A stretch of 41,399 nt of DNA from a virus (lineage: Duplodnaviria > Caudoviricetes). This document shows, in pieces, positions 5,076 to 39,834 of this stretch (the first letter of the stretch is position 1; each line of letters starts with the position of its first letter). The stretch spans positions 1-41,399 of the IMG/VR virus record IMGVR_UViG_3300034418_001895, one strand, 5' to 3'. A model generated the notes under the pieces. That model was not told where the DNA came from. It made no database searches and saw nothing but the letters and a program-made list of their open reading frames with translations. A program made the position numbers and the translations under genes.

Positions 5076-5999
5076 ATGAGCTTTGCAGCACCTATAGAGT
5101 TTTACGAGCGGCAGGAAAAAATAAAAGCCAGCCCCCTTTATCCGCAAATTCAGTACATGAATTTGCAACTAAACCAGATGCAAGAGGGCACCCCTCAGTA
5201 TGAGGCGCTCAAGGCAAAACTCTTTGCCATGCAAGATCAAGCGGCTGGTGGAATGGCTCCGCAGCAGCAAATGCCACAAATTCCCGGCAGGTCTGGCGGT
5301 ATTGAGGGTTTGGCAGAAATGCTGCAAAGGCTGCAAGGCGGACAAAGAAGCCCCGGGCAGTACCCAGATACTTACCCGGTGCCTAGCACGGACGACATGA
5401 TCATTGAATTCCCAGTGCCAGATAGCCGACCTTCGCCGCCTATTGGCTTTCCCGGATTTCCAGAGAAACTTCCAAAGAAAACCTTCCCTGACTACATAAA
5501 GACAGGACAGGGCAGAAGGTTGCCGCCAAGCCCTCCTATCTTAGATGATATTTTTGGCCCAGAGGGTCGAATACCTCCCCGCGATGATCGCATCCCAATG
5601 ATGCGAACCAACGACTTTCAAGACCGAAATAGAAACGGCGTTGACGATAGGGACGAAAGAGGTGGGCGAGGCAAATTCAGAAGGATTCCAAGCCGCAGGA
5701 TAAAAGATTCTTACCGACGAAGGGGCGGTTTAGCAGGTCGGATTGCAGAGCTTGCTGAGCAGATGCGAGGCCGAGAAGAGATGCCTAGACCCCGTGGAGG
5801 GATGTTTGGAGACCTCATGCGCCGAATACAGTCGGAACGAGATCAGCCGCGCATGGAGGCTCTCATGCAAAACATGCAAGCGCCGCCTCCTGAGCAATAC
5901 TTTGCGGAAAGAAATCGACGAATGAGACAAGCGCCTGACATGGAGCAAATCAGAAGGCAGTTAATTCAGAACATTAACTTTCGGGATCTTGGCATCTAA
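5076..5999 (+). CDS. Pro/Arg/Gln/Met-rich low-complexity protein, possible internal virion protein
   Basis: 307-aa ORF in the late operon, TAATG coupling to the next gene, contains DRNRNGVDDRDE. Confidence 0.65.
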   Translation: MSFAAPIEFYERQEKIKASPLYPQIQYMNLQLNQMQEGTPQYEALKAKLFAMQDQAAGGMAPQQQMPQIPGRSGGIEGLAEMLQRLQGGQRSPGQYPDTYPVPSTDDMIIEFPVPDSRPSPPIGFPGFPEKLPKKTFPDYIKTGQGRRLPPSPPILDDIFGPEGRIPPRDDRIPMMRTNDFQDRNRNGVDDRDERGGRGKFRRIPSRRIKDSYRRRGGLAGRIAELAEQMRGREEMPRPRGGMFGDLMRRIQSERDQPRMEALMQNMQAPPPEQYFAERNRRMRQAPDMEQIRRQLIQNINFRDLGI

Positions 6000-7612
6000 T
6001 GGCTATCTCTGACGATTTACAAGCAGCCCAAGACGAATACGGTAGCTCAGCATCCCCCTATGCAAGTCTGAGTGAGTATTTGATGCAGCGCCCTGCTTAC
6101 GACAGGGGCGCTAGGGCTGCGCCAGCGGCTCCGACGATGAGAACGCTTGACGCTATTACTCCTGACACTGACCAGTTGCTGGCTGAGCAGTATGAAAAGA
6201 TTATGGCTGAGCAGAGAGAGGCTCAAGAGGCATCTGCGGCGGCTCGTCAGACGGAAATTGACAGCCTAAGAGACCTGTTGAGAGAAGAGCTTGCCACGTC
6301 AGAGCAGGCGGCTCTGGGCGAGAGGTCTGAGCTTTCCAAGTCTCTTGAGGCGCAAATAGAAGATATGCGTCGTGGCGTTGACGCAGAAACCATGGATCTT
6401 CGCCAAGCTGGACTCGACGAGAGGGCTGCGCTTGCTCGTCAGATTGAAGAAGGCGACAAGTTGGTTAGAGAGGCGCAGGTTCAGGCCATTGGCGACTTGG
6501 AAGACCGGCAAGGTTCTTTGGTTGGCGATCTTAAAGAAAGAATAGGCTCTTTATCTTCTGATCTTTCTAGCATCAATAGCGTGATTGATCAGAATTATTC
6601 TGAATTGCTTAACATTCAAGAAACCTCGTCAGGTGCTACTCAAGAGCAAATATCCGGCATAAACCAAGAGCTGGAATCATTAAGCGGTACTCAGTCGGAA
6701 ATTGACACGCTAAACCAGCAGCTTGAAACCTTGTATGAAGATGTAGAAGCTGGAAATGTTGATCAATCTGAATTGTTGCGTGGAGAGGTTTCCGACCTAA
6801 TTGCTGGTTTAGAAGGCAAGATAAGCGGCATTCAAGACAACCTTGGTGCCCTGCCAATCGACCAGATTCAGGCAGAGCTTGCCACAGTCAACGATCAGAC
6901 TGCTGCTTTTCAACAAGCAATTGATATTGCTGGTACAGAAAGAACTGACCTCGCCGCAAGAATAGAGGCGTTGCAGGCCGCTGGATTGACCCAAGATGAC
7001 CTGTCTGGCTTGTCTGAGTCGATTGCAAGCCAAAGGCAGACGGACATCACTTCAGCTCTAGACCCTGTACAACAGCAGATTGAGGCGCTTCGCGGCCAGA
7101 TACCCGGAGAGGTTGACACCGAGGCATTACGCAAACAAATTACCGAAGACATCATGGCTCAAATGGCTAATCAAGCGCCTCCCGCTGGAGGGGGCACTGG
7201 CGACACCGACACAGATGTAGATGTTGGCGACGTTGTTGTTGAACCCAGCCCCGGGTTTAGCGGAACACCTTATGAAAACTTTATGGGCGGTTTCATTCCC
7301 GGCGCAGGGCAATCCTATGACGCAGGCGTAAACTACGGGCCGTCAGCGTCCGAAGCGGCTGGCTTTAACCCTGCCGGCGGAGGCTCAATGGGCAGAGGCA
7401 ATCAAAGCATTGTAGATAATTCTGGTTATCTTGACTTTTATAATCAACAAACTTTAAATCCAGTTTCGCCCGTAAAAACAGGCAACATGCCCGGCGGCGG
7501 AGTTGGTTCAGGGTATGTGAAGACTGGCGCTCCAATTGCCTACAATCAAGGGCCGTTTCAGGCTCAGAAATTTAACACCAACCTTTTTAATAAAGGAAGT
7601 TTTGGAATGTAA
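5999..7612 (+). CDS. Acidic coiled-coil protein, possible internal virion protein
   Basis: 537 aa, long heptad region then a Gly/Pro-rich tail. Confidence 0.7.
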   Translation: MAISDDLQAAQDEYGSSASPYASLSEYLMQRPAYDRGARAAPAAPTMRTLDAITPDTDQLLAEQYEKIMAEQREAQEASAAARQTEIDSLRDLLREELATSEQAALGERSELSKSLEAQIEDMRRGVDAETMDLRQAGLDERAALARQIEEGDKLVREAQVQAIGDLEDRQGSLVGDLKERIGSLSSDLSSINSVIDQNYSELLNIQETSSGATQEQISGINQELESLSGTQSEIDTLNQQLETLYEDVEAGNVDQSELLRGEVSDLIAGLEGKISGIQDNLGALPIDQIQAELATVNDQTAAFQQAIDIAGTERTDLAARIEALQAAGLTQDDLSGLSESIASQRQTDITSALDPVQQQIEALRGQIPGEVDTEALRKQITEDIMAQMANQAPPAGGGTGDTDTDVDVGDVVVEPSPGFSGTPYENFMGGFIPGAGQSYDAGVNYGPSASEAAGFNPAGGGSMGRGNQSIVDNSGYLDFYNQQTLNPVSPVKTGNMPGGGVGSGYVKTGAPIAYNQGPFQAQKFNTNLFNKGSFGM

Positions 7613-7614
7613 CT

Positions 7615-7977
7615 ATGGCTTCTTCTGCCCCTAAAAATGTAGCCAATCCTAGTCTTTACGCCAAAGCTAAGGCTAAGGCCAAGGCTAAGTTTGATGTTTA
7701 CCCGAGCGCATATGCAAACGGCTGGATGGTTCAGGAGTACAAGCGGATGGGTGGAAAATACAAAGGCGCTACTGGCGGCGACGTGAGCTTAGATCCGAAG
7801 AAAAGCGATCTTGATAATGACGGCAAGCTAAGCCGTTACGAGCGTAAGCGCGGCACCGCTATCGCCAAGAGTATGGCAAAGAAAATGAACATGGGCGGAA
7901 CGGTGATGGTTCAGGGTCGTGGCTGTGGCGCTATCATGCCAAAAAAGCAAAAGAAGACGCGAGTGCCCCGTGGCTAG
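7615..7977 (+). CDS. Small basic protein with an EF-hand-like loop
   Basis: YPSAYANGWMVQEYKRMGG, DLDNDGKLSRYE, RGCGA motifs. Confidence 0.7.
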   Translation: MASSAPKNVANPSLYAKAKAKAKAKFDVYPSAYANGWMVQEYKRMGGKYKGATGGDVSLDPKKSDLDNDGKLSRYERKRGTAIAKSMAKKMNMGGTVMVQGRGCGAIMPKKQKKTRVPRG

Positions 7978-8281
7978 AACTGGGCTAAAGAAATGGTTTA
8001 GCGAAGATTGGGTAGATATTGGCGCTCCAAAAAAAGACGGTAAATACCAACAATGTGGCCGAAAAAGCGCATCAAAAAAAAGTGGCAGGTCATACCCAAA
8101 GTGCGTTCCAGCGGCAAAAGCGGCAGGCATGACGGAAAGTCAGAAGAAAAGCGCAGTGGCGCGAAAAAGATCTAAGAGACAAGGTGTTGGCGGAAAGCCT
8201 ACAATGGTCAAAACATTTGCCGCTCGCGGCGGATCAATTAACAAGAAACCCGGTAATTCCGGTTTATTTGGGAGGCGATAA
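7970..8281 (+). CDS. Small basic conserved viral protein
   Basis: GLKKWFSEDWVDI...CGR...YPKCVP motif; GTG start at 7970 overlapping the upstream stop region. Confidence 0.7.
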   Translation: MARTGLKKWFSEDWVDIGAPKKDGKYQQCGRKSASKKSGRSYPKCVPAAKAAGMTESQKKSAVARKRSKRQGVGGKPTMVKTFAARGGSINKKPGNSGLFGRR

Positions 8282-8646
8282 TGAAGATGAAGGCAAAAGG
8301 GTACAGTCTTGGTGGTGCTCCGAAAACACGCGCACAGCGTCGATCTACGTTGAGCCGAGCGCAAAGAAATTTGCTCGACTCAGTGCAAGGCGCAGAGGGA
8401 ACCAAGCAACCTACTAGCGTTATTCAAGACCTGTCTGATCAGTACGGCTACAAGCCCGGAAAGAGAGCGGGTGCTAGAGGCCGAGGCCGGAATAAGGCAA
8501 CCCCTCCCGGGATGAATATGGGCGGAGCTGCAATGAAGACCAAGGGTTACGCTAAAGGCGGTGCCGCAATGAAGACCAAAGGCGCAGCGAAAGGTGGAAT
8601 CAAAAAACCATCTTCCAAAAAGACGGGATTATTTGGTCGTAGATAG
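8281..8646 (+). CDS. Lys/Arg/Gly-rich basic protein, possible DNA-condensing core protein
   Basis: Internal repeats MKTKG[YA]AKGG; TAATG coupling; GGAGG RBS. Confidence 0.7.
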   Translation: MKMKAKGYSLGGAPKTRAQRRSTLSRAQRNLLDSVQGAEGTKQPTSVIQDLSDQYGYKPGKRAGARGRGRNKATPPGMNMGGAAMKTKGYAKGGAAMKTKGAAKGGIKKPSSKKTGLFGRR

Positions 8647-14337: not shown

Positions 14338-14645
14338 GCAGGCTGCTTGAGACAAGATTACCCTTCTCTTTGGGGGAATCTGTCAGCTCAGAAACTTTTA
14401 ATCGCTTGGTTCGCATTCTAGAATTGAACCTTGGGGCGGTGGATTTTACGATCTCGCCTCATTTTAACGCTGACGAGATTAGCGAGCTTCAATTTGCAAC
14501 GGGTAGTATAATCTTCAATACTACTAACCAAATACACCAAGCGTTTGACGGTAATAGTTTTAGAGACCTCTATAGCCATCAAACCTACCCTTCAGGCCAA
14601 GCGATTACGGCTTCAGTTGGGAATGTAACAGTGAGTACACCCTAA
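14334..14645 (+). CDS. Small tail-associated protein
   Basis: ATGA and TAATG coupling; GSIIFNTT motif; C-terminal ITASVGNVTV resembles the repeats of 40010-40726. Confidence 0.65.
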   Translation: MSRLLETRLPFSLGESVSSETFNRLVRILELNLGAVDFTISPHFNADEISELQFATGSIIFNTTNQIHQAFDGNSFRDLYSHQTYPSGQAITASVGNVTVSTP

Positions 14646-16768
14646 TGGATGAAATGCTACAAAACCGTATTAAAGGCCTTCTAGGCGGCGCGGACATGCC
14701 AAACTTGGTGACGACAGGCATGCCCTCTGATTCTGAGTTATCAGAGTATTCCTCGGTTTCGGTTCTGCCTGAGTCGCAAAGCGGAGATATGGTCGAGGGT
14801 AAGGATTACCTGAACATTGGCGGTCAGTTCTTTTGGCCTTGGGAGCTGGAAAGCGCCCTGCCAAACGGCTTTAGTGACACTAGGGCCATCTCAAGGTTTC
14901 TTGAGTCCCTGCCAGAAAAACCTGCCATCAAAGAATTGCAACGGCTGAAGGGTATCGTTGGGCAGGGCGACATGGTTTCTGATGATGAATATCGCAAGAA
15001 TAAATCAAAAAAGCTCCGCGATGCATTTAACAAAAAACAAATGCGTAGGACTGCTGATCTCGCCATGGGCGGCATGGGTAGAGGCGCAATCTCAGATGCC
15101 GATATGAAAGAGTTTCGCGGCATGGCTGAGGGCGGAGAAGTCGATCAAGGAGAAATGATGATGGAGTCATCACCAAACGCTGATCTAGAGCAGACAATAA
15201 TGATGCTCATGCAAGAGCAACAGATGACCGATGACCCAGACGAGCAAAAATCTTTGCAGGCTGCGGGTGAAAACTTACAAGCCGCAGCGCAAGCCCCAAT
15301 GGCAGAGCAGGCGGCAATGCTTGCAGCAGAAGGCCGTAACGGCGACACAAGGCTTGCCCACCTTCGGGTTGGCGAGGTGGTTCTACCCCCAGAAGCGTTC
15401 GAGGACGAGCAGTTCGAGAGCATGGTTGGTGCCAAGTTTAAAGAGCTAGACCTAGACCCAGAGCAGTACGTTGTAGGCGGCGGGATCGCAAGCTTAAACC
15501 CAATTACTGGCCTAGAAGAGTTCGGCTGGTTCAAGAAGACGTTTAAGAGTCTGAAGAAGGTTGTTAAGAAGGTTGCGCCAATTGCAATGTTTATCCCCGG
15601 AATCGGCACCGCGCTCGGCGCTGCACTCGGCGGTATCGGCGGCTTAGCTGGCGCAGGCATGGCTAAGATTGGATTGGGAGGCCTAGCAAGCACGATCGGT
15701 GGCGGTCTTAGCACCGCTTTAGGCGGACTCGGGTCTTTAGGAATACCGGGAATCTCTCCGATAGCTGGCGGCGCTGTTGCTGGCGGATCAGGGTCTGTAC
15801 TTTCCACAATCGGTGGCGCTCTAAGAAACCCGCTTGCTGGCGGAGTGTTTGGCGGAGCTGGTTCGACTTATGGTGGCCTTGATCCAAGCGTGGCGGGAAA
15901 CCAAGATTTCTTTAGAAGGACTTTGGATAAGTTCGTGAGTGCAGCGCCCAAAAACACTGCGGAATCCATTCAAAAAATGTTAGACGAGGGCGTGTCTCCA
16001 GAAGATATTGCAAAGCAGCTTGAAACCCAGCAGCCGGGGATTCTTCAGCAGTTTATGAGCGGCGTAGGCGGCATGCTAGGCATGGGCGCTGGCGGCGGCG
16101 GAATCGGAAGCCTGTTACCTCTACTCGCGGCGGGTGGCCTTGGCAAGCTGGCTTATGATGAAGCCAAAAACATGAGGGGCGTACCGTTAACCCCGCTTAC
16201 TCAGGAGGGTTCTACAGGTCGTTACAACATTGAAGCCGAGATTGCTCGGCGCTCAGGTCAACCTGCCCCTAACCCTGTCGAGTTTGGTTTACTCCCAGCA
16301 GGCACTTTACCCCCGCTTAGCGGCGGCAGGGCAACCCCTGAGACCGTTGCGGCAGATCCCGTAGGTGTTGCAGACCCTGCGATGGAAGAAGTTCCCGTCG
16401 CAGCCAGATACGGCGGCGCGATCATGTCAGCTAGAAATGGTGGGTACGTTATGCCCATGGCTTACAAGAAGGGCGGCAACGTGTCTACCGAAGACTTTGA
16501 GCGCATGAATGGCGGCATCAACGGCGAGGGCACAGAAACCAGCGATGATGTCCCAGCCATGCTGTCAGACGGCGAGTTTGTCATGACAGGCCAAGCGGTC
16601 AGGGGTGCTGGCGCTTTTGACTTAGCACAAGGGGATGGCGGGATCATTACGCTGACACCAAACGGCAGTGAAAGCCGTGACGGTGGCACAGCACTTATGT
16701 ACGAAATGATGGACTTGTTTGCCGAGTTTGCAGATAAGCCCAAGTCAAAGAGGGGGAAGGCAGCATGA
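14645..16768 (+). CDS. Internal virion / ejection protein
   Basis: GRNGDTRLAHL, NPITGLEEF, Gly-rich hydrophobic region, GTETSDDVPAMLSDGEFV motif. Confidence 0.7.
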   Translation: MDEMLQNRIKGLLGGADMPNLVTTGMPSDSELSEYSSVSVLPESQSGDMVEGKDYLNIGGQFFWPWELESALPNGFSDTRAISRFLESLPEKPAIKELQRLKGIVGQGDMVSDDEYRKNKSKKLRDAFNKKQMRRTADLAMGGMGRGAISDADMKEFRGMAEGGEVDQGEMMMESSPNADLEQTIMMLMQEQQMTDDPDEQKSLQAAGENLQAAAQAPMAEQAAMLAAEGRNGDTRLAHLRVGEVVLPPEAFEDEQFESMVGAKFKELDLDPEQYVVGGGIASLNPITGLEEFGWFKKTFKSLKKVVKKVAPIAMFIPGIGTALGAALGGIGGLAGAGMAKIGLGGLASTIGGGLSTALGGLGSLGIPGISPIAGGAVAGGSGSVLSTIGGALRNPLAGGVFGGAGSTYGGLDPSVAGNQDFFRRTLDKFVSAAPKNTAESIQKMLDEGVSPEDIAKQLETQQPGILQQFMSGVGGMLGMGAGGGGIGSLLPLLAAGGLGKLAYDEAKNMRGVPLTPLTQEGSTGRYNIEAEIARRSGQPAPNPVEFGLLPAGTLPPLSGGRATPETVAADPVGVADPAMEEVPVAARYGGAIMSARNGGYVMPMAYKKGGNVSTEDFERMNGGINGEGTETSDDVPAMLSDGEFVMTGQAVRGAGAFDLAQGDGGIITLTPNGSESRDGGTALMYEMMDLFAEFADKPKSKRGKAA

Positions 16769-18531
16769 GCATATTAACCCCAGCTCAGCTTGCTCGCGTT
16801 AGGCGGTTTGAAGAAGGCGGATCAACTGGCGATACAACGACGACCCAGCCTTACGTCTCTGGCGTAACCAAGACCGAGACCCGAATAGATCCGATAACCC
16901 AACAGCTATTGTTTGGCTTAGACGGTCAGGGCGGCTTTATCCCGGGAGCGTTCCGTGCGGCAGAGCGCACCTTCTTCGATGAAGAGGGGCGACCGATTGT
17001 CATACCGCAAGAGATTGCAGGCTTCAGCCCAGACCAGATCAGGGCTATGGAAATGGCCAGAGCCAATGTTGGCGTACAACAGCCATTCATCGACGAGGCG
17101 ATGCGGAGAGGCCAACAAGGTATCGGTTCTATTGAGCGAGGCTTGGCGGATCAAGCCGTAGCCTCTCAGCAGGCTCTACAGGCCCAGCAGGAAGGCGCTA
17201 GGTTCGCACTCGACCAAAGAGATCGAGGCTTGATGGAGTCTCTCAGAGGCACTCAGGAGGGCCGTGGACGGGCCATTGCCGCAGAAGAGCGTCTGCGTGG
17301 AGACATAAGCGACCTATCCCGCCGTGGTATAAGAGATACACAAAGATTTGGCATGGACTTGGCCAGTGCTCGACAGCAGGGCAGAAGGTCATATGACGAG
17401 TTCGGGCGCGATATCACGGATACTTTAGGCATGGGTATGTCAGAGGCCCAAAGGTATCGTAGCGGACTTGGTGAGTCTCAAGAGCTGCTTCGTGGCACTG
17501 CTGACAAAGAGTTTGACGTTGCATCAGCAACAGCCAAGTACCAAGACCCTTATGAGGATCAAGTCGTTCAGCAGATGATCGAAGATGCTAGAGAGGGCTT
17601 GGCCAAGCAGGATACGGCTCAGCTTGCTAGAGATATTCAAACCGGCGGACAGTCGGCCTTCGGCTCTAGGGCAAGGCTAACCGGCCAAGAGAGAGCCGAG
17701 GCAATGGGCAGGGGCTTGGGCAAGGCGATCGGTTCTTTGCGCTCACAAGGCTTTCAGCAGGCTCAGCAGACGGCAATCGGCGAGGACGAAAGGCAAAAGC
17801 AGGCAGCTAGAGCGGCTTCTTCTGGTCTTGCAAGCTTGCAGGGTCAATCTTATGGCGCAGGTAGAGACGTTACAGGCCAGATGGCTCAGGCGGCTGGGCA
17901 GAAGCTCAGCGCAGGCCAAGGCTATGGAAATCTACTCCAGCAAACCGCTCAGGCTCAGTTGGGCGCTCAGCAGCAACTAGGCGGTCAGTTAGGCCAGATG
18001 GCGCAGCAACGATACGCGGCTGGCACTGGCTTAGGTCAGACATTGTCTGGCTACGGTCAGCAGAGCGCGGCAGCAAGACAGGCGGCAGGGCAGACAGGAA
18101 TGAACGTAGCAGGCACTCTCGCTGGCCAGTACGGCCAAATCGGAGCGCAGCAAGCGGCTGGAGGTCAGGCACTTGGTCAGGCTCAGACGGGCTATGGCGG
18201 CTTCCTAAGTGGCCTTGGCAGTCAGGCTCAGCAGGCAGGCGCTCAGGATGTCGCTGCAATGCAGGGCATCGGAAGCATGGCCCAGCAGAACAGGCAGGCA
18301 CAGCTTGACGCGCAACGCGCTGGATTATTGCAAGCACAGCAGGCACCTCTGGCTCAGTACCAAGCCCTGATGCCATTTGTGAGCATGGCTCCATCAGGTC
18401 AGACGCAGTTTCAAACTAACTTTGGGCCTCCCCCGTCTGCTTTACAGGCAGGTGTTGGGACGGGGCTTGCAACGGTAGGTGCGCTAGGCAATTACTACAA
18501 CCCGTCTAGCCAGCTTTCTGGGAGTCGGTAA
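16765..18531 (+). CDS. Internal virion / DNA pilot-type protein
   Basis: Gln/Ala/Gly-rich helical repeats, YQDPYEDQVV and AFGSRA motifs, hydrophobic C-terminus. Confidence 0.7.
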   Translation: MSILTPAQLARVRRFEEGGSTGDTTTTQPYVSGVTKTETRIDPITQQLLFGLDGQGGFIPGAFRAAERTFFDEEGRPIVIPQEIAGFSPDQIRAMEMARANVGVQQPFIDEAMRRGQQGIGSIERGLADQAVASQQALQAQQEGARFALDQRDRGLMESLRGTQEGRGRAIAAEERLRGDISDLSRRGIRDTQRFGMDLASARQQGRRSYDEFGRDITDTLGMGMSEAQRYRSGLGESQELLRGTADKEFDVASATAKYQDPYEDQVVQQMIEDAREGLAKQDTAQLARDIQTGGQSAFGSRARLTGQERAEAMGRGLGKAIGSLRSQGFQQAQQTAIGEDERQKQAARAASSGLASLQGQSYGAGRDVTGQMAQAAGQKLSAGQGYGNLLQQTAQAQLGAQQQLGGQLGQMAQQRYAAGTGLGQTLSGYGQQSAAARQAAGQTGMNVAGTLAGQYGQIGAQQAAGGQALGQAQTGYGGFLSGLGSQAQQAGAQDVAAMQGIGSMAQQNRQAQLDAQRAGLLQAQQAPLAQYQALMPFVSMAPSGQTQFQTNFGPPPSALQAGVGTGLATVGALGNYYNPSSQLSGSR

Positions 18532-19923
18532 ATGGCCATATCAAGAGCGCAGTTAGAACAGCAGATCCAACGGCTTGCTGACGGCGGGACGGCTGATCCT
18601 TTGAAGACCCCCGAAGTGGTTTCAGAGACCGAAGTTTTGGAGGTTGAGCCAGAAGCTCCAGAAACAACCGTTGATCCGATGCAGGCGCAAATTAACGCTA
18701 TGCTGGCGGCTATGAGGCCAAAAACCCCGGAGCCTTTTGATTTTGACAAGAGTTACAAAAAGTACGCTGAGCGGTTGAAGCCGTATTTTTCTCAGTCAAC
18801 GCGCCCAACTTTTTATGACTTGGCCTCCGATATAGGCGCAGCAATGCTTTCTGCTGACCCAACGGCTGGCGCGTTCCGCAGTGCGGGAGTTGGCTTTTCT
18901 AACTTCAACGATCGGCTTCGGAAGTCTAAAGAAAGCAGGATCGCGCTTGATCGACAGGTCGGCTTGCAGGCAATGCAGATGGCTATGGCTGACGAGAAGT
19001 CTGCAAAAGATTATCTGAACAAGATCGAGCTTGAAAGAATAAAGCTTGCTAACAAACCGTATGATCCAATAATTTACGAAGTGCCTACAGAAGACGGCGG
19101 GGTAAAAACTGTAGAAGTGAACCCAAGTAATCAATTTGAAGTTGCAGCTATCAGGATGATCCCGGGCGCTAAGCAAATCAAGCTCCCGACGTCTACCGTT
19201 AGTGTTGATAGCAGGGTCATGCCTCCTTCGACTAGAGAGAAAAAAGCCGGAGAGGCTTTAATCGAGTTAGAAGAGACATGGATTAAAGATGCCTCGACTG
19301 CTGTTTCTCAGAACCAGTTAACGAATCAATTCATGTTGCAACTCGCTAGACTTGGCCCAGAAGGTTGGGGGCGGATAGCGACTGGCACCCTACCTGCTAG
19401 GCAGGTTTTGAGCGAGCTTGGTGTTAGGGCGGACGAAAATCTCGATGATCAACAGCTCGCGCTGACCTTGGGCACCAGAATAGCAATGGGATTAATTGGC
19501 GAAACCAAAGGCGCGATCACAGAAATGGAGATGAGACTGTTTCTTGCCGCGTCCCCAACGCTTTCTTCCACCTACAACGGCGCAATGAAGCAGGCGGCTT
19601 TTTTGCAAAGGATCGCCAATTTAAACATAAAGAAGGCTGAGGATTACAATAAGGCCGTTGCAGAAGGGCTTTTGAAGGATGCGGAAACTGATTCTGATAA
19701 ACTTCGGCTGGCCCAAGGGTGGGAGCTTTCTTGGCGGCAAAAGCCTGAGAACCAATTCTTAACGGCGGAAGAAAGGTCTGAATTGCAGGCTTTGGCATCA
19801 CAAGAGCCTGAAGCCGCGAAAGCCTTTAGGGAGAGTTTCTTTGCTGATATGAAAACTTCGCCCTCGGTAAATACTGACTTATCTAGTATTACTATTCAAA
19901 AAGTTCCGAAGTCGGGGGAATAA
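18532..19923 (+). CDS. Internal virion / ejection protein
   Basis: Helical 463-aa ORF with KGAITEMEMRLF motif; N-terminus MAISRAQL identical to the capsid protein. Confidence 0.7.
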   Translation: MAISRAQLEQQIQRLADGGTADPLKTPEVVSETEVLEVEPEAPETTVDPMQAQINAMLAAMRPKTPEPFDFDKSYKKYAERLKPYFSQSTRPTFYDLASDIGAAMLSADPTAGAFRSAGVGFSNFNDRLRKSKESRIALDRQVGLQAMQMAMADEKSAKDYLNKIELERIKLANKPYDPIIYEVPTEDGGVKTVEVNPSNQFEVAAIRMIPGAKQIKLPTSTVSVDSRVMPPSTREKKAGEALIELEETWIKDASTAVSQNQLTNQFMLQLARLGPEGWGRIATGTLPARQVLSELGVRADENLDDQQLALTLGTRIAMGLIGETKGAITEMEMRLFLAASPTLSSTYNGAMKQAAFLQRIANLNIKKAEDYNKAVAEGLLKDAETDSDKLRLAQGWELSWRQKPENQFLTAEERSELQALASQEPEAAKAFRESFFADMKTSPSVNTDLSSITIQKVPKSGE

Positions 19924-31343: not shown

Positions 31344-31754
31344 ATGGCGGATTCAAGAAACAAGGGGGCATCATTCGAGCGCGATTGCGTAAAGCGCATC
31401 AATGCGTTTGCCGAAGAGCATGCCCTTGGCTTTACCTGCAAGCGTAATCTTGATCAATACCAAACCGCCGACCTGTGTGACATCCAGATCCCGGGCCACG
31501 CGCTTGAGTGTAAGGCTTACAAGTCTGGCTGGTGGTACGCAACCGCGTGGTGGGATCAGGTCTGCGCGGCCTGTGGTGATAATGTTCCGATTCTGATATA
31601 CAAGTTTAATAACAAGGCGATCAGGGTATGCCTGCCGCTGTATGCGATTAACGAAAATTTGCCGCGAGATAACTCTCGTACAGCGGTTATCACCCTCGAC
31701 GAGTGGTTCGTGCTGTTGAAAGAGTATTTTGATGCCCAGCAAGAGGCCGCGTAA
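31344..31754 (+). CDS. Holliday junction resolvase (Hjc-like PD-(D/E)XK nuclease)
   Basis: SRNKGASFER...D...ECK...WW.Q...P.LIYK motifs. Confidence 0.8.
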   Translation: MADSRNKGASFERDCVKRINAFAEEHALGFTCKRNLDQYQTADLCDIQIPGHALECKAYKSGWWYATAWWDQVCAACGDNVPILIYKFNNKAIRVCLPLYAINENLPRDNSRTAVITLDEWFVLLKEYFDAQQEAA

Positions 31755-34700
31755 TGCCGAGATTTGATGATATCGACATCTTTGGGTACAACTTGGGTGG
31801 CTCGGTCGGTCAGATGATGGGGAGAACCCCTGACCCTGAGCTGCCCGAGTTGACCAGTGCCCAGATGGCCAACATTGGGGCCGCATTTGCTGACCCCTTT
31901 GGCCTAATTGACATTACCGGCGAGATGCCTGAGTTCCCTGCGGGTAATGTTTCGATCTCTGGCATGGTCATGGAAGGCCCGAGGTCGCCTAGCCTTGTTG
32001 AAAATTTGCGCGAGGGTAACTACGGGTCAGCGGTTCTTCAGGGAATTGGCGTGGTGCCCGTTGTTGGTGGTGTTATGAGAGCTGCCCGTGGCTTGGGTAA
32101 GGCTGCTGATCGTCTTGAGAGAGCTAAGAAGGCTGGTTTCGACACCGATACGGTGTATTACCATGCCACGGATAAAGATTTTTTAGAATTTGAGCCATCA
32201 ACCAAAGGCAAGCTTGGGCCGGGAATCTATGCATCTCCAGACCCGCAATATGCTCAACGCTACATTCGCGCCAGTAATCGAGGCATTGAGCCGGGTACTG
32301 GAACCCCAGACTTTGTTCCAGACGCTAGGGTATTACCTATATTTATTAGGGGCAAGATTGGCGACATTAATGATTACGAAAAGGCCTCAGAGAAGGCAAA
32401 GAAGTCTTTAAGCAAGAAATTTCAAGAATTGGATGACTCTATTGACCCTGAAGGCTTAAAAGATCCTGATAGCAGAAGCAGGTTTAGGGATGTTTATCGA
32501 CAAAAGCTTTCGATGCAGAAACAAAAGGCCCAAGAGATATTGGCCAAGGACGGGTTCTCAGGCTTCAAGGTTGGTGATGAGCTTGTCGTCTTCAATCCAA
32601 AGGATGTTCGCTCTGTAAATGCCGTTTTTGAAGATCCAAAATCCGCCGAGCTGCTCAAAGCCAACGGCGGCGAGATACGCAAGTTTGCTGGCGGTGGCAT
32701 CATCAATCTGATCGCCAAGGGTGCATTTGATCCTCGGTTTGACCCACGGGTTAAGGAGCAGGATATGCTCCGCAACCTTGAGGCTGAGATTGTAGAGAGG
32801 GCTGACACTCAGCCCATGCCCGGCCTTTCGTTATCTGAGCTTGAGGGTGAAGATTTTGTCACCTCGATGACTGATAGAACCCGCGCTGGTGCTGACGTTA
32901 GGAGCATCAATAGAATTGAGTTGATTGACCCGATATATCTACCGGGCGGTCAGGGTTTTATGTTCAACAATCCCAGCGCGGTTTGGGCTTCTGCTGAGAT
33001 GCCATCGCGTCAGATCTTGGAGATGGCCAGAGACCTGAAGTCTAAGTCTGGAAAAGACCCCTTGTATATCCCATGGCGCATGGCACCTTCTGGTGGTGAT
33101 TTTGCCACCACCACGGGTGAGTTAATGCTTGGTTACGCCGCAGCCAATATGACCAAGGCCACCAAAAAGGCTTTGGATAAGGCGATCAGGGCGTATAGAA
33201 CCAAAGGCAGCATGGTTAAGGGTAAGCGCGTTGGCGCTGGCAGAAAGATTGAGGGCTGGAAGGGTATTGATGACCCCAGCGCCGTTCAGGCTTGGCGAAA
33301 CGCGCCAGACTCTGTGCGAAAAGAACTCATGAACATGATGGACGTAGAGTTCCGCAACAAAGGCGGTTTATCCATAGGCGCGGCACGTTTAATCAACGCT
33401 GATCCTACGCAGCTCGTTGGTCGTGATGCTGGCATTCAGAACGTGGGCCGTATTTTTGCTGATATCGACATATTTGAGTCCGATCACCCGTCTTATCCCT
33501 TTGCGGTGCCGGGAGCTGGCGTAGGTGTACTCAGGAAGGCTGATGAGGCAACGGTTTTCGACCTATTACCAGAGGCTAGATTCGGCGCGTCTCAGAAGAA
33601 AGTAAAAGATCCTGCGAACCCAACGGCCCAAGAAGTACGTGCGCTTCAGATGAAGCCTTATGGCGGCACAATTACTGAGAAAATACTTCGCCGCATGGAA
33701 GCTCGCGGTGTCGATATCAACTCTATCGCAGGGCTTTCTGGTGGTGCCCTGACTTTCACCCTTTTGTCGGCTGGCTTAGTGACTCCGCAGGAGGCTGAGG
33801 CTGGAGTGATCAAGGAATTTGCCGAGCGAATGATGAAAGCTGATCAGATGGGCCTTTCTACCGATCAGATCCTGTATCACGGCTCTACTTTTGATATCGA
33901 AAAGTTTGTGCCCAGCCCTAATACAGACAACGATTTTGGTCAAGGCACCTACTTGACCATTTCGCCTAGCGATGCTTCTAGAAACTACGCAGGCGAAGGG
34001 CCAGATCTAACCAATCGCATCAACCTGCTTTCTGAGCAAATACAAGACAGCTTGGAAAGTGGCTGGGATCTAAACCCAGAATTTTGGGGCAAGATAAACG
34101 ACCCAGAAGTGTTTGCCAAAGTTGAAAAGCTGGTTGATGAGTTTCAGGAAAATCGTGACAGCGCGGTGCTTGAAAAGGCCGCTAACCTCGCCGCCAAAAC
34201 CATTCTTAAAGGTGACAATGAAGGCGTGGTCTACCCTGTTTTTGTGAACAACAACGACTTTGCGGTCATCGGTGGTAAGAACAAGACGGTTATCGATATC
34301 GATCGGGAACAGTATTACGACTCGGCTAGAGAGGAATTAGACCGATCTGATTTTGATAGCGATGATGATTTTGAGGACGCTGTATTCCAATACGCTTATG
34401 AGCTTGAAAATAATGATTACGAAAGCCCGATTGCAAGTCTTGCAGATACGCTCAAGTATGCTGGCGCAAGCGATGAAGCGGTTGCCGAGGCAATAGGTTG
34501 GGTTTCGGACGCAGGCGAAATAGATTTAACTGAAATCAATGACATCATCCGCAGGTCTTACAGTGAAGATTTTGACACTGGCGAAATGCTTAACAACGGC
34601 CAGATCATGCAGAATGTTCTGACCGATCTTGGTTACAAGGGCGTTGTAGACAATACAACTGGCACTAAATTCGCCAACATGGGTTCAGGGGGCATGCACA

Positions 34701-36103
34701 CGATCGTGTTCCCGGGTAACGAGAACCTAATCCGCTCGATCAATGCTAAGTTCGATCCAGAAAACGCTGACTCACCGAACATACTGGCCAGTGCCCCGCC
34801 AATCTTGGCCCCCGTTGCTGGCGCTACTTTTTTGGCCACCGCATTGTCATCTCAAGAAGCCGAAGCTGGCGGGTTAGGTAGCCTGCATTCCTCGATGAAG
34901 AAGGCTAGGGCCGAAAGCGTCAAGCAAGCAAAAGAACAGGGTTATGATTTAGACAACGTCATGTACCACGCGAGCAAGCAAGATATCGATGAGTTTGTGC
35001 CGGGCTTCTCTGACGGGTTAGTTTTTTTGACTCCCGATAAGGAGTTTGCAAACAACTGGCTTGGCAAGGGCAAGTTCCAAGAAAGGCAGGGTGGAACGGG
35101 TGCCATTGAAGGTGTGAGGGCTGAGAAAAAACGCTTCATGGAAGAACAAAATGAAATAATGAAGTCGATGCCAGAAGACCAGCGGCAGAAATACTATGAA
35201 GAAGTGGTTTGGCCGCAAAGAAGCAGAATGATAACCGAAGAGCGAGAAGCTGATGCCGCCATCTACCCCGTAGTCACTAGGACTAAAAAGCCGTTTGTGC
35301 CAAGCAAGGATGTTGATGTCTTAGAGGATTTGTACGGTAAAGAGTACCTAGACGCACCATTCGGCAGCGGGTTTCCTACATACAGAGATGCCTTAAAAGA
35401 CGGCAATTACCTCCTGTATGAAAACAAACAGGTTGTGGATTTCCTGAAAAGCAAGGGTTACGACTCGATGTTTTTGAAAGAGAGCGCCGGTGAAAACAAG
35501 CCATTCACCACACTGGCCGTTTTCGAGCCGAATAACATAAGGTCAGTCAACGCAAAGTTTGATCCTAAGAAAAAAGATTCACCCCAGATATTGGCCAGTG
35601 CCCCTTTTGTTGGCGGCGCAGCCTTAGCCATGGGGTCTATGCAAGACGCTCGCGCAGCTCAGTTGGCTGCTGAAGCCGCTGGCGCTGAAGTCTTTATGGA
35701 CGCAGCGTCGGGAATAGTCAGCCCAATTGCTGGAGGTCTTGTTGGTCTTTTGGAGTATCTCAACCCCTATAGCGACAGAGAGGGTAAGGGCGAAAGGATC
35801 AAGCGATACAGGGAAGGCGTTGCTGAGGCGCTCAATTACGAGCCACGCAGCGAGTTAGCACAAGGAATGAGCCAAGAGGCGATGGAAGGTATTGCTGGCC
35901 TATTGCAACCAGCGGTTGAAGCAGCGGCCCCGACCGCTAGACGGTTTATTGATTACGCTACCGATCCAAGCAACGTGATGACCGAGGATTACCGTATCAA
36001 TATGATTCCTGCCCTGTATCAAGGTGGCAAGTACCTTTACGAAGACATTTTTGGAGAGCCAGAGCGTGAGGCCGTCAAGAGTGCTGTTGATGTCGTCCTT
36101 TAG
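31754..36103 (+). CDS. Large polyvalent protein with three ADP-ribosyltransferase-like (ART-PolyVal type) domains
   Basis: Three repeats of YH[AG][ST]..F..G.[YF].[ST]..A...[VI].P[IV]...G[FY]...VF.P..[IV]RS[VI]NA.F; TAATG coupling with the resolvase. Confidence 0.75.
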   Translation: MPRFDDIDIFGYNLGGSVGQMMGRTPDPELPELTSAQMANIGAAFADPFGLIDITGEMPEFPAGNVSISGMVMEGPRSPSLVENLREGNYGSAVLQGIGVVPVVGGVMRAARGLGKAADRLERAKKAGFDTDTVYYHATDKDFLEFEPSTKGKLGPGIYASPDPQYAQRYIRASNRGIEPGTGTPDFVPDARVLPIFIRGKIGDINDYEKASEKAKKSLSKKFQELDDSIDPEGLKDPDSRSRFRDVYRQKLSMQKQKAQEILAKDGFSGFKVGDELVVFNPKDVRSVNAVFEDPKSAELLKANGGEIRKFAGGGIINLIAKGAFDPRFDPRVKEQDMLRNLEAEIVERADTQPMPGLSLSELEGEDFVTSMTDRTRAGADVRSINRIELIDPIYLPGGQGFMFNNPSAVWASAEMPSRQILEMARDLKSKSGKDPLYIPWRMAPSGGDFATTTGELMLGYAAANMTKATKKALDKAIRAYRTKGSMVKGKRVGAGRKIEGWKGIDDPSAVQAWRNAPDSVRKELMNMMDVEFRNKGGLSIGAARLINADPTQLVGRDAGIQNVGRIFADIDIFESDHPSYPFAVPGAGVGVLRKADEATVFDLLPEARFGASQKKVKDPANPTAQEVRALQMKPYGGTITEKILRRMEARGVDINSIAGLSGGALTFTLLSAGLVTPQEAEAGVIKEFAERMMKADQMGLSTDQILYHGSTFDIEKFVPSPNTDNDFGQGTYLTISPSDASRNYAGEGPDLTNRINLLSEQIQDSLESGWDLNPEFWGKINDPEVFAKVEKLVDEFQENRDSAVLEKAANLAAKTILKGDNEGVVYPVFVNNNDFAVIGGKNKTVIDIDREQYYDSAREELDRSDFDSDDDFEDAVFQYAYELENNDYESPIASLADTLKYAGASDEAVAEAIGWVSDAGEIDLTEINDIIRRSYSEDFDTGEMLNNGQIMQNVLTDLGYKGVVDNTTGTKFANMGSGGMHTIVFPGNENLIRSINAKFDPENADSPNILASAPPILAPVAGATFLATALSSQEAEAGGLGSLHSSMKKARAESVKQAKEQGYDLDNVMYHASKQDIDEFVPGFSDGLVFLTPDKEFANNWLGKGKFQERQGGTGAIEGVRAEKKRFMEEQNEIMKSMPEDQRQKYYEEVVWPQRSRMITEEREADAAIYPVVTRTKKPFVPSKDVDVLEDLYGKEYLDAPFGSGFPTYRDALKDGNYLLYENKQVVDFLKSKGYDSMFLKESAGENKPFTTLAVFEPNNIRSVNAKFDPKKKDSPQILASAPFVGGAALAMGSMQDARAAQLAAEAAGAEVFMDAASGIVSPIAGGLVGLLEYLNPYSDREGKGERIKRYREGVAEALNYEPRSELAQGMSQEAMEGIAGLLQPAVEAAAPTARRFIDYATDPSNVMTEDYRINMIPALYQGGKYLYEDIFGEPEREAVKSAVDVVL

Positions 36104-36411: not shown

Positions 36412-37485
36412 CTAGCCTCCTAAATATTCGTGCGAGTAAGAAAAAACTTTTCTTACGTCCCAATTTAAGTTTTTATTGCCTCCCGCATTACCACGAACTT
36501 TCATGTTTTTTGATGTTGCTCTCCATTTGTCAGACTTGTTGCGATAAGCGCCCATGCGAGGATGAGTTGTCTTGCTAAAGTATCTTTTGCCTTCGCTCAA
36601 GTGTATTTCTCCAACAGCATCACTAATCCTAACCCCCAGCCCCAACCCTTGATAGTCTGGCAAAACAACGGTTCTATGGCCCCTAAAAGCTTTTTTAAGC
36701 GTTCCGCTTGGCATACTTATGGCTGAGGCAAACCCAACAACATTTGATCCCCAGAGACAAATCCAGTGTCTTGCACTTTTATTGATGTTTTCTGAGAGAT
36801 AGTGATGGTGGCTGAAGGTTGTCCACGCCTCTGGCCCACAAGGTAGCAGCTCCAATTCAATTGTGGGTTGCCGAAGACTCCCCCTTGGGAGGTATTCACC
36901 CGTCAAGGTGTCAAAAACCCAGTCTGGCCTGAGCCAGTCAATTATGTCGTAGTGGCAAGACGCAAAGACAACGGACTTTAAGTTATGCTTTTTGATGTAG
37001 CGATGAATAGCAGAAGAGCAAGATTTAGCAACAGACCTATCGACCACGCTGGTAAACTCGTCTATCACCGCGCCATCACCCAAACTTCTGGCTAAATCTG
37101 CCCTGTATTTCTCTCCAGTGGACAATATTGCGTATGGCCTAAACCAAGCGGGAACACTGTTTAGCCCCACGGCTGAGAGTTTATTTTGCGCGTCTTCAGC
37201 ATTAAAAAAGTGAGAGACTATAGCCTTATCGTCCTCCCATTGGTGCTGTCTCTCACACCCATACTGCTTAAGCAAAGTTGACTTACCACTACCCGAAGGC
37301 CCGACAATTAACCCAATACCGAAGTCTTTAGTGTGCGGCGGCATAGATGGTATCTGACATTCAGAAACGCCGTTAAAGTCATAATCAAAATTTGACGATA
37401 CAGCTTCGGTTATTTCGTCTTGGCTTATGCCTTCACGCTTTAGTGTTTGTTTCATATAACCCCCAGATTGTTCCATGTAAAACAT
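36412..37485 (-). CDS. ABC-type ATPase fused to a GNAT (Mom-like) acetyltransferase
   Basis: Walker A GPSGSGKST, signature LSTGE, Walker B AVIDEF, H-loop SCH; then HHYL and acyl-CoA motif VLPDYQGLGLG. Start could be 37455. Confidence 0.8.
   Translation of the reverse strand: MFYMEQSGGYMKQTLKREGISQDEITEAVSSNFDYDFNGVSECQIPSMPPHTKDFGIGLIVGPSGSGKSTLLKQYGCERQHQWEDDKAIVSHFFNAEDAQNKLSAVGLNSVPAWFRPYAILSTGEKYRADLARSLGDGAVIDEFTSVVDRSVAKSCSSAIHRYIKKHNLKSVVFASCHYDIIDWLRPDWVFDTLTGEYLPRGSLRQPTIELELLPCGPEAWTTFSHHHYLSENINKSARHWICLWGSNVVGFASAISMPSGTLKKAFRGHRTVVLPDYQGLGLGVRISDAVGEIHLSEGKRYFSKTTHPRMGAYRNKSDKWRATSKNMKVRGNAGGNKNLNWDVRKVFSYSHEYLGG
37469..37484. promoter_or_regulatory. parS-like palindrome 2
   Basis: TGTTCCATGTAAAACA, two mismatches from TGTTCCACGTGAAACA; directly after a stop codon on the minus strand. 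Confidence 0.4.
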
Positions 37486-37957: not shown

Positions 37958-37971
37958 GCCGCTTACGCGGC
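37958..37971 (-). repeat. Stop-codon hairpin repeat, copy 5
   Basis: GCCGC-GTAA-GCGGC on the minus strand, followed by AAGGAG RBS. Confidence 0.7.
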
Positions 37972-38466
37972 TTGTTTTATTGATTCGATTTGCGGGTTTA
38001 CCAAAGTGCGTCGAAGCTCTCGGTAAATAGACTTAAAGGCCTCTCCATGAGACTTGCTGTATGTTTTCTTGAGATAGCGAGTCCAAGGGCCATACAGCAT
38101 TTGCACATGATGCGAGATCTCATGAGCGACTACTGCAAACAGCACCAGTTCAGGATCATTGGTTTCAAATTCGCCAATGACTGGATCGGCAGCATAAGCC
38201 GAATACTCTGTCATCTTGTAAGACGGATTTCTAAGATATCGCATGTCGATGCTGATACGCTGAGGGCCACCGTAGCTTCTTTGCCCTTTGTGCTTGGTTT
38301 GCACCGACAGGCGTTTCAAGGCTTCAGCGTAGACAACAGGCTTGCCTGCATATTCAAGCTCATACTGCTTCTTGCAGATTTCCTTCAGGCACTGCTTGGC
38401 AAACTTGATCACCAGCTTGTGCTCTTCGGGAGTTACGTTTGAACCTCTTTTTGATTTGATAGTCAT
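37963..38466 (-). CDS. SprT-like zinc metalloprotease
   Basis: VVAHEISHH (HExxH) with downstream SHGEAF (HG..F). Confidence 0.7.
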   Translation of the reverse strand: MTIKSKRGSNVTPEEHKLVIKFAKQCLKEICKKQYELEYAGKPVVYAEALKRLSVQTKHKGQRSYGGPQRISIDMRYLRNPSYKMTEYSAYAADPVIGEFETNDPELVLFAVVAHEISHHVQMLYGPWTRYLKKTYSKSHGEAFKSIYRELRRTLVNPQIESIKQAA

Positions 38467-38797: not shown

Positions 38798-39046
38798 ATG
38801 AGTGATCAAGGGGCAGGTGCCCAAGCGAAGAAAGTCTTTTACAACCGAGTGCGGCGCACTTGCCTGAAGCACGGCATCGACATCGTCTATGATGGGATGC
38901 CAAAGGCGGTCTACGGCATAGAGCTGGTTAAGGATGGTCAGGTAATGTTCGCTGACCGCAGCAACAACAGCATGCCTTTGGACATCAACTGGCAGCGGCT
39001 GCACGAAGAGATGTCCGAGTACGGATTCAAGGGAGGCGTGAAATGA
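38798..39046 (+). CDS. Small hypothetical protein
   Basis: AGGAG RBS before ATG 38798; ATGA overlap with the recombinase. Confidence 0.65.
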   Translation: MSDQGAGAQAKKVFYNRVRRTCLKHGIDIVYDGMPKAVYGIELVKDGQVMFADRSNNSMPLDINWQRLHEEMSEYGFKGGVK

Positions 39047-39834
39047 GCGGCAATCCATTAAAGCAGGTCAACAACATTTACGGATACGTGCGCGTGTCTA
39101 CTGACGAGCAGGTCAAGTCTGGTATCTCGCTTGAGACGCAGAAGCAACAGATCAGTGAGTTCGTGCGTGAAAAGTACAACCGTGATGTGACCGAGTTTTT
39201 TGCCGACGAGGGTATCTCTGGCACCCACGCTGTCCTCGACCGACCCGCAAGCCGCGAGATGACTGACGTGATCGACGAGCATGACGTTGTCGTCTGCACC
39301 CGCCTTGACCGACTCAGCCGATCAAGCTCTGACCTTCTTGGTATGATTCCCGTTTTGCAGGACATCGGCATCACCCTTTACTTCTGCGAGCAGTTTGGTG
39401 AAATGCCGATCGTTTATCCTGACGCAAGCAGGTCTAAGGGTCTCGATGCTAAATTTGACATGAACTCTATGGCAAATCAGATTATGCTAATGGTATTGTC
39501 GGCGGTTGCTGAGATCGAGCATGCGACAATCAAGGATCGATTTGCGGCGGGTAAGCTTGACTGGGCCTCACGCGGCTACGCGATTGGAGGATCTGCTCCT
39601 TATGGCTTTCGTCATGAAGAGGTCAAGACTGGCAGCAAGACTCGCAAGAAGCTTGTCGAGATCCCTGAAGAGCAGGCGGTGCTCAAGACGATCTACAGGC
39701 TCCACGGTCGAGGCCTTGGGCCGCGAAAGATCGCAAAGCAGGTCAATAGCTTACACAGCATTCCCCCGCTGACGCACTCGAAGGTGCAGCGCATACTCAA
39801 TCGGAAGTATCAGGGTATCCCTAGCGCCGCGTAA
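39043..39834 (+). CDS. Serine recombinase (resolvase/invertase family)
   Basis: YGYVRVSTDEQ (catalytic Ser), TRLDRLSRS, VAEIEH, GGSAPYGF and a short C-terminal helical domain. Confidence 0.9.
   Translation: MSGNPLKQVNNIYGYVRVSTDEQVKSGISLETQKQQISEFVREKYNRDVTEFFADEGISGTHAVLDRPASREMTDVIDEHDVVVCTRLDRLSRSSSDLLGMIPVLQDIGITLYFCEQFGEMPIVYPDASRSKGLDAKFDMNSMANQIMLMVLSAVAEIEHATIKDRFAAGKLDWASRGYAIGGSAPYGFRHEEVKTGSKTRKKLVEIPEEQAVLKTIYRLHGRGLGPRKIAKQVNSLHSIPPLTHSKVQRILNRKYQGIPSAA

Follow-up and report, generated by a model that had tools for sequence, protein, structure and literature searches.

Hydrophobic joints resembling signal peptidase sites separate the modules of a multidomain phage protein and are possible processing sites for the host enzyme

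The sequence analysed here is IMG/VR virus record IMGVR_UViG_3300034418_001895 (Caudoviricetes; positions 1 to 41,399), and this whole stretch of 41,399 nucleotides is referred to below as the window. It belongs to an uncultured podovirus-like phage whose capsid protein was nearest, among the phage records compared, to those of DSL-LC04, HTVC023P and CRP-901/902 (57-64% identity). An open reading frame (ORF) at 31754-36103 (+) encodes a polyvalent protein with predicted ADP-ribosyltransferase (ART) domains. It is flanked by terminase-small-subunit/RusA-like genes and a serine recombinase gene, a setting shared by five related loci (L001, L004, L009, L011 and L028). Three of its domain boundaries are occupied by a hydrophobic stretch followed by the motif Q-[ED]-A-x-A, a joint that recurs in relatives and may be cut by the type I signal peptidase (LepB) of the host. 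The gene is laid out as follows.

31754..36103, + strand: polyvalent protein gene, 1449 residues (from the ORF list and Pfam/PHROG)
31754..32128, + strand: N-terminal region, with a Gly-Gly motif at residues 12-18 and an uncharged, hairpin-like Gly/Val stretch at residues 88-108
32129..32653, + strand: ART-PolyVal domain 1, a predicted ADP-ribosyltransferase (Pfam PF18760, E 3.4e-18, residues 134-289)
32660..32698, + strand: tandem Gly-Gly joint, residues 303-315, a second joint type
32699..33715, + strand: unknown domain, module M8, 340 residues, with a confident predicted model
33716..33802, + strand: Joint 1, hydrophobic stretch followed by TPQEAEA, with cleavage predicted between Ala683 and Gly684 (after base 33802)
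33803..34771, + strand: ART-PolyVal domain 2 (module M9), which carries a large acidic insert (the separate piece scores Pfam E 1.6e-5, under the curated cut-off)
34772..34867, + strand: Joint 2, hydrophobic stretch followed by SSQEAEA, with cleavage predicted between Ala1038 and Gly1039
34868..35578, + strand: ART-PolyVal domain 3, module M2 (Pfam E 6.6e-8 on the separate piece), which many relatives lack
35579..35656, + strand: Joint 3, hydrophobic stretch followed by SMQDARA, with cleavage predicted between Ala1301 and Ala1302
35657..36103, + strand: C-terminal domain, the final module in close relatives

The joint peptides span residues 664-684 (33743-33805), 1020-1039 (34811-34870) and 1284-1303 (35603-35662) of the ORF and were present where the first-pass annotation, made from the sequence alone, had placed them; its report that tandem Gly-Gly motifs take the place of a hydrophobic joint at the first boundary was likewise confirmed (residues 303-315). 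Q-[ED]-A-x-A occurred nowhere else in the protein, and the joints were the top three of its 21 A-x-A sites ranked by upstream hydrophobicity. The uncharged runs before the sites were 22-28 residues long, with 11-residue Kyte-Doolittle values of 1.6-2.0. In 20,000 shuffles, the joint pattern (at least 12 uncharged residues, then Q[ED]AxA) appeared once in 38 and twice in none; the pattern was defined after viewing the sequence, so the homolog tests weigh more. Each joint lies at the end of a domain, namely the unknown domain, ART domain 2 and ART domain 3, and AlphaFold gave low confidence at the joints and confident domains alongside. The stretch at residues 88-108 was followed by basic residues and had no acidic A-x-A site.

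The homolog set comprised the query, the 120 proteins listed out of 241 near-length matches, and 64 shorter matches (185 proteins). A hidden Markov model (HMM) of the joint, during the building of which 19 of 164 unique candidate joints were dropped as in-domain false positives, found 373 copies across these proteins, with 30 of the 185 having none. Of the 373 copies, 371 had Ala at -1 together with a small -3 residue (the HMM was trained on such sites). Cutting 121 proteins at their joints yielded 441 pieces, 41 module clusters, 46 architectures and 53 distinct module pairs. Joint windows made up 10.8% of residues but held 9,713 of 29,334 alignment ends (33%; the pairs are not independent), and these ends were most frequent 0-9 residues past the Ala. 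Population contigs terminated at 35609 in four of four runs and at 34898 in three of four; one connected 34812 to 35617, such that ART domain 3 was lost and hydrophobic stretch was joined to hydrophobic stretch. On the evidence of alignment ends, architectures and contig breaks, the joint plus its domain is the shuffling unit, which bears out the earlier proposal that linker plus domain is the unit of modular expansion. The survey of homologs that had been suggested alongside it found the joint conserved at many unrelated domain boundaries. Relatives carried ART-PolyVal, PBECR5, LPD23 and DUF7178 modules in mosaic architectures, and with several predicted conflict-type domains (ART-PolyVal, PBECR, LPD) in such arrangements the protein is a polyvalent protein.

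That swaps gather at joints, and that a resolvase gene (39043-39834) lay about 3 kb or less downstream in the related loci examined, would also suit a motif that is the imprint of a DNA crossover site of the nearby serine recombinase, as in a shufflon. However, all four Ala codons were used at -1 and -3 among 35 DNA variants (at -1, GCT 17, GCA 7, GCC 6, GCG 5), so that third codon positions are free to vary and selection therefore acts on the protein; the crossover-site reading is largely refuted by this codon use and scarcely credible. The serine recombinase gene itself is a conserved feature 3' of the cargo gene, and L052, L058 and L059 have a distant one 5' of the terminase.

The joint was present in three capsid lineages (phrog_371, phrog_1328/SU10 and phrog_9953). 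In the two lineages other than that of the window, carrier genes lay either in the terminase-portal interval or in the portal-scaffold interval. In L054, L055, L058, L059, L061 and L062 the joint came first in the protein, as an N-terminal leader some 30 residues long that no domain precedes, and such leaders were seen on cargo genes between terminase and portal (L058:2053-3708, L054:832-2490 and L061:704-2620). These proteins are the best natural test substrates. Searches of 50,697 phage records gave no full-length homolog and two partial matches, and no relative was found on GTDB genome contigs; no locus was found for protein P0227, and a scan for P0080 returned solely known loci. Cluster records of 10 distant carriers named no host. 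The joint did not occur in the fetched parts of the cultured phages DSL-LC04, HTVC023P (beyond its first 11 kb) and CRP-901 (beyond its first 4 kb). We conclude that the joint is real, widespread and undescribed in the literature searched, within a known class of phage proteins. It divides dozens of unannotated phage proteins into modules, among them a domain without a solved fold.

Modules at protein ends provided a natural control for the internal joints. Matches to a profile among 1.84 billion representatives numbered 5,745; of the best 150, 132 were new and formed a distant set, in which the stretches were located from the ART end alone, blind to the site. Among 125 ART ends, 90 were followed by a hydrophobic stretch, 8 by a Gly-Gly joint and 26 by neither, and 1 lay at the terminus. 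A small-x-Ala site stood behind 37 of the 43 internal stretches, 11 of the 16 intermediate and 5 of the 31 terminal ones, and a strict Ala-x-Ala behind 25 of 43 internal versus 2 of 31 terminal stretches, with the hydrophobicity of the stretch equal whether or not a module followed (1.76 vs 1.83). After removal of the rows of one clade (9 of 90) and of tails shorter than 7 residues, the site was present in 30 of 36 internal and 3 of 20 terminal cases. Fisher values for the contrast (2e-9 and 7e-7) are overstated given the clade structure. The simplest reading is a two-part joint, with a tail that would belong to the module and a site that would be kept where something must be separated. The dependence of the site on a downstream module favours a processing site, as this is how a cut site should behave. 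The hydrophobic stretch has a role of its own because it is also present without the site at protein ends.

This persistence of the stretch without a site also suits joints that are never cut. The Gly/Ala-rich stretch would then be a membrane-entry or anchoring helix and [ST]-P-E-E-A-x-A-G a short capped helix spacing the next module, with the likeness to signal peptides incidental. Acidic residues at P5 and P4 suit an N-capping box and misfit signal peptides, Gly-Gly joints occupy the same position (replacing the hydrophobic A-x-A joint behind ART domains in relatives), and the stretch region of P0317 matches a glycine-zipper family, under that family's cut-off. However, a spacer beside dozens of different neighbours offers no clear reason why -1 should be Ala in all but one of 107 sites when -3 and -2 vary (the HMM was trained on Ala), several membrane spans of the same sense would put alternate domains on the wrong side, and a 30-residue leader ahead of a cargo domain has nothing to space. 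Uncut travel has precedents in the N4 virion RNA polymerase, ArdC and TraC1, which are described as unprocessed (PMC5512222). On balance we regard uncut joints as somewhat unlikely. Even so, they would mean a membrane-active tail on phage ADP-ribosyltransferase modules, of which no description was found in the open-licence literature searched.

The sites were compared with signal peptidase I substrates. P1 was Ala in 106 of 107 sites, and P3 was Ala in 84, Val in 10, Ser in 6, Thr in 4 and Leu in 3. In the distant set, -3 was Ala, Val, Ser, Thr or Leu, -2 was variable and Pro occurred at +1 in none of 53 sites. The reference was a published Gram-negative matrix from 307 signal peptides (PMC2638155, supplement 2), which the sites fit at P9-P6, P3 and P1 and misfit at P5, P4, P2 and P1'. 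With P5, P4 and P2 removed from the matrix, the three joint sites ranked 1, 2 and 5 among 1,434 positions. A hydrophobic region and the P1/P3/P2/P1' pattern of a signal peptidase I substrate were found, and a neutral c-region was not; the position is internal in the window and N-terminal in six loci of another lineage. The first-pass annotation had taken a hydrophobic region plus A-x-A as the recognition pattern of this enzyme, which held for Ala at -1, a small or aliphatic -3 and a variable -2, and failed for the strongly acidic c-region and the mostly Gly +1. The rarity of acid at P4 in signal peptides could reflect the LepB pocket or the needs of Sec export, and the matrix does not tell which; if it reflects Sec export, the acidic flank could keep the joints from being read as export signals where the protein is made. 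The protein is best not classed as signal-peptide-bearing, though it may work like one. A predicted complex of Escherichia coli LepB (76-324) with joint 2 scored 0.01, which is evidence neither way. Twin-arginine (Tat) and lipoprotein signals were rejected, as [ST]-R-R-x-[FL] and Cys at the site each occurred in 0 of 153 stretches.

LepB acts at the outer face of the inner membrane, cutting behind a span whose N-terminus is inside and C-terminus outside (N-in/C-out). We favour, at a probability of roughly two in five, the reading that LepB would cut the injected chain at each membrane-inserted joint. Its observed basis is the modular build, the conservation of the joint, selection at the protein level and the tie between site and downstream module. 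The protein would be head cargo, as for other polyvalent proteins. On infection the chain would enter N-terminus first, toward the cytoplasm, and each hydrophobic stretch would stall in the inner membrane N-in/C-out with its acidic flank outside. LepB would then cleave past the Ala at the periplasmic face, leaving the upstream enzyme on the cytoplasmic side and anchored by a short tail, much as single-module relatives are built in nature. The next module would begin with a short amphipathic helix, as at the N-terminus of free forms, and enter in its turn. More speculatively, a protease of the RseP type may release the anchored enzyme; RseP is described as cutting single-span N-in/C-out proteins and remnant signal peptides (PMC10470546). 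We infer entry from outside because it is the only route we see that gives every joint the orientation LepB requires.

Several observations bear on the first and fourth of these steps. Phage ARTs of this kind are considered likely to be packaged in the head (PMC9503650). Relatives of the gene sit in head clusters, a Gly-Gly motif is common to the protein and to probable virion proteins, and the fold of M8 matches a protein labelled structural. Among modules found both free and internal, 22 of 72 free N-termini mapped within 5 residues of the predicted +1 by ungapped extrapolation. Amphipathicity over the 11 residues past the site slightly exceeded the random value (1.10 vs 0.90, p 0.01), with natural N-termini at 1.27.

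A number of results weigh against cutting by LepB. Scored with the full matrix, the sites reached -0.1, 4.2 and 5.3 bits, compared with 12.8 expected for real signal peptides. Asp or Glu occupied P4 in 94%, P5 in 49% and P2 in 39% of the 107 sites, compared with <1% each in signal peptides (0.7% at P4), and Gly stood at +1 in 61 of 107 sites, compared with 6% in Gram-negative signal peptides. Moreover, [ST]-P-E-E-A is also a common helix N-cap. The joint stretches are marginal as membrane spans, with 19-residue Kyte-Doolittle maxima of 1.65, 1.66 and 1.26, and the 19-residue hydropathy was at least 1.6 in just 44 of 153 stretches. Net charge upstream was positive in just 86 of 153 (mean 2.7 Lys/Arg in the 10 preceding residues) and about +0.1 in the distant set. 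The contrast between internal and terminal joints is clade-structured, with 7 label changes on a 65-tip tree versus 21.6 when shuffled (about 7 independent switches), and of four sister contrasts one fits and three are without difference. Six of 43 internal joints have no site, 35 of 125 ART ends lack any hydrophobic stretch, and M8 in P0185 ends without one. Of the free N-termini, 50 of 72 were not near +1; these starts are gene calls, and many of the 50 have extra N-terminal modules or doubtful starts. In the lineage of the window the gene is not adjacent to portal or capsid genes. If a leader functioned as a signal peptide, export by the producing cell would be expected in place of packaging, and how a cut-off module would re-enter the route has no explanation in the model. 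Finally, in the import of colicin D, LepB is described as needed but non-catalytic (PMC4026351).

Some of these points would suit action in the producing cell, where internal Sec signals or anchors would let LepB free the modules into the periplasm, for example for superinfection exclusion. The N-terminal leader versions resemble ordinary signal peptides, and in the window the gene lies outside the main structural block, its packaging being a matter of inference. However, a chain threaded from inside cannot have every one of a series of same-type signals cut, and ART domains depend on nicotinamide adenine dinucleotide (NAD). Export from the producing cell is disfavoured because only the first joint would be oriented correctly and NAD-using domains would be put in the periplasm. 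The location of relatives in head clusters and an acidic c-region and weak n-region unlike those of export signals also speak against it, and we consider this route very unlikely.

A different protease that reads [DE]-A-x-A, either an unrecognised phage maturation protease in the head or another host protease, might instead do the cutting. The acid at P4 is nearly as fixed as the Ala at P3, which a dedicated protease could explain, and there is precedent for cutting polyvalent proteins ahead of packaging, established for P1 DdrB and proposed for those bearing MPTase or assemblin domains (PMC5512222). An HExxH ORF of 167 residues lies at 37963-38466 (-), without a Pfam match, and many unannotated ORFs leave room for a novel protease. 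However, none of 14 scaffold, capsid, portal and ejection proteins had the site behind a hydrophobic run, and the bare motif occurred in them at chance level. Scans of 47 of the 49 ORFs of a 96%-complete relative, and of the window and the terminase-portal stretch of the close relative L034, brought up no recognisable head protease, though the genomes are incomplete and many ORFs unannotated. No S78 match was found in 5 records, and the only peptidases in the 96%-complete relative were an endolysin and a tail-chaperone peptidase. HExxH was absent from the protein and 120 close homologs (HExxxH lay outside the test), and no peptidase Pfam was found in 30 homologs. The HExxH ORF, found in only some relatives, was rejected as a dedicated cutter, being in 1 of 5 carrier records (4 of them incomplete). 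A Glu-specific head protease was rejected as well, since Asp substitutes for Glu at P4 in 30 of 53 distant sites and scaffolds lack the site. Furthermore, one site across three capsid lineages is simpler with a host enzyme, and a soluble protease leaves the hydrophobic stretch unexplained. Another protease is unlikely, and a phage head protease as cutter, which the first-pass annotation had offered as an option, is disfavoured.

Returning to cutting by LepB, a broader claim, which we hold slightly more tentatively, is that many aquatic podophages carry effector polyproteins split on entry by the essential signal peptidase of the host, with a cassette made of an entry helix, an enzyme, a membrane stop and a LepB site. 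If so, the host could not lose the processing enzyme, and the phage would be free to add, drop or swap effectors at the joint. It would be a phage counterpart of the animal-virus polyproteins processed by signalase, run inward. Such a cassette would bear on two points, namely how separate effectors arise from polyvalent proteins that lack a peptidase domain and by what route head cargo gets across the inner membrane. The joint yields predictions at the level of residues, namely cuts after Ala683, Ala1038 and Ala1301 that depend on LepB.

Known systems share parts of this arrangement. MARTX toxins carry swappable effectors in a string, released by linker cuts after membrane passage. Unlike the phage joints, they belong to bacterial toxins directed against eukaryotes and are cut by their own cysteine protease. 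The prohead-protease cargo of phages T4 and SPN3US is likewise head cargo cut at a short repeated motif. Its motifs are Glu-specific and its sites are not known to carry a hydrophobic stretch, and it needs a phage protease and the motif in scaffold or capsid, neither of which was found here. Polyvalent proteins as described by Iyer et al. 2017 (PMC5512222) are similarly multidomain phage proteins with ART-PolyVal and PBECR domains, proposed head cargo and proposed processing to single effectors, but there the cutting is attributed to an MPTase or assemblin domain that the chain itself carries, and none was found here. The main text of that paper has no match for 'signal pept', 'transmembrane' or 'linker' (external files excluded). 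The Gram-negative signal peptidase I substrates of Choo and Ranganathan 2008 (PMC2638155) have a hydrophobic stretch, Pro, Ser or Ala at P6, a small or aliphatic P3 and Ala at P1 in common with the joint, whereas the joint is internal and repeated, with acidic P5, P4 and P2, Gly at P1', a weak basic n-region and a Gly/Ala-rich core. At the pestivirus Erns-E1 junction, a virus borrows the host signal peptidase to split a chain at internal hydrophobic signals (PMC8002126); animal-virus polyproteins are cut during synthesis in the endoplasmic reticulum to give envelope proteins, whereas here cutting would occur on entry and give cytoplasm-facing enzymes. Colicin D also meets inner-membrane proteases (LepB, FtsH) as an incoming protein and has its enzyme domain released, but it has a single toxin domain and no repeated joints (PMC4026351). 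An analogy with a Euglena polyprotein was rejected, as the cleavage of its linker is tentatively ascribed to a thiol peptidase, an enzyme with no relation to signal peptidase (PMC4938576). The open-licence literature searched gave no phage case of a polyprotein processed by signal peptidase, and the literature on HTVC023P virion proteomics gave nothing on this protein.

The last module is a candidate packaging handle and a candidate portal- or scaffold-binding handle. M1 or M3 stood last in 103 of 103 pieces from close relatives, and a hydrophobic terminal helix (...A-x-D-[VA]-[FAV]-L) was conserved across carriers. The domain is weakly related to the last domain of the L051-L062 proteins, of another capsid lineage (HMM, E 7e-7 to 8e-4); a pairwise comparison with the N-terminus of P0185 was not significant (E 0.06), and no HMM match was found either.

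M8 has a confident fold (predicted local distance difference test score 79) and matched 18 viral proteins in BFVD. No solved structure matched it in the Foldseek PDB search at E<=0.001, and the ESM Atlas gave it no match at or above 0.9 and gave joint 2 no usable match. M8 was also found alone as the C-terminal domain of L032:3635-5050. ART domain 3 gave no Foldseek PDB match at E<=0.001, the best being the anti-CRISPR protein 6kyf (E 0.13), along with weak PARP matches; a PDB sequence search was empty. The start of ART domain 2 (33872-34303) matched genes annotated as NUDIX hydrolase in two large phages, which suggests putative ART-NUDIX fusions there.

RNA contigs in one metatranscriptome spanned most of the gene (27 of 30 bins), which is not proof of expression. 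In some relatives a short extra ORF with the same DDIDIF-type N-terminus lay just 5' of the cargo gene (L006:1203-2171; L042:4267-4737). A gene for a P-loop and GNAT fusion at 36412-37485 (-) was also found in L001 and L007, and was not at that place in L004, L009 and L011.

An aromatic/aliphatic-x-x-Gly-Gly-x-Val motif, a pattern picked post hoc, occurred 9 times in the 37 window proteins, compared with 0.86 expected. Besides the 1449-residue protein, it was present in the capsid protein, in two small products of the structural block and in two putative ejection proteins, with occurrences noted at 7615-8646, 14645-19923, 31787-31807 and 32660-32698, and it was also seen in HTVC023P and DSL-LC04 proteins. 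The putative ejection protein at 14645-16768 has a long uncharged stretch rich in Gly, Ala and Leu (about residues 315-415) and a tape-measure-like C-terminal motif. The major capsid protein (2194-3111) and the putative ejection protein at 18532-19923 both begin with MAISRAQL, and the product of 5999-7612 begins with MAIS; this start is possibly a shared assembly or targeting signal.

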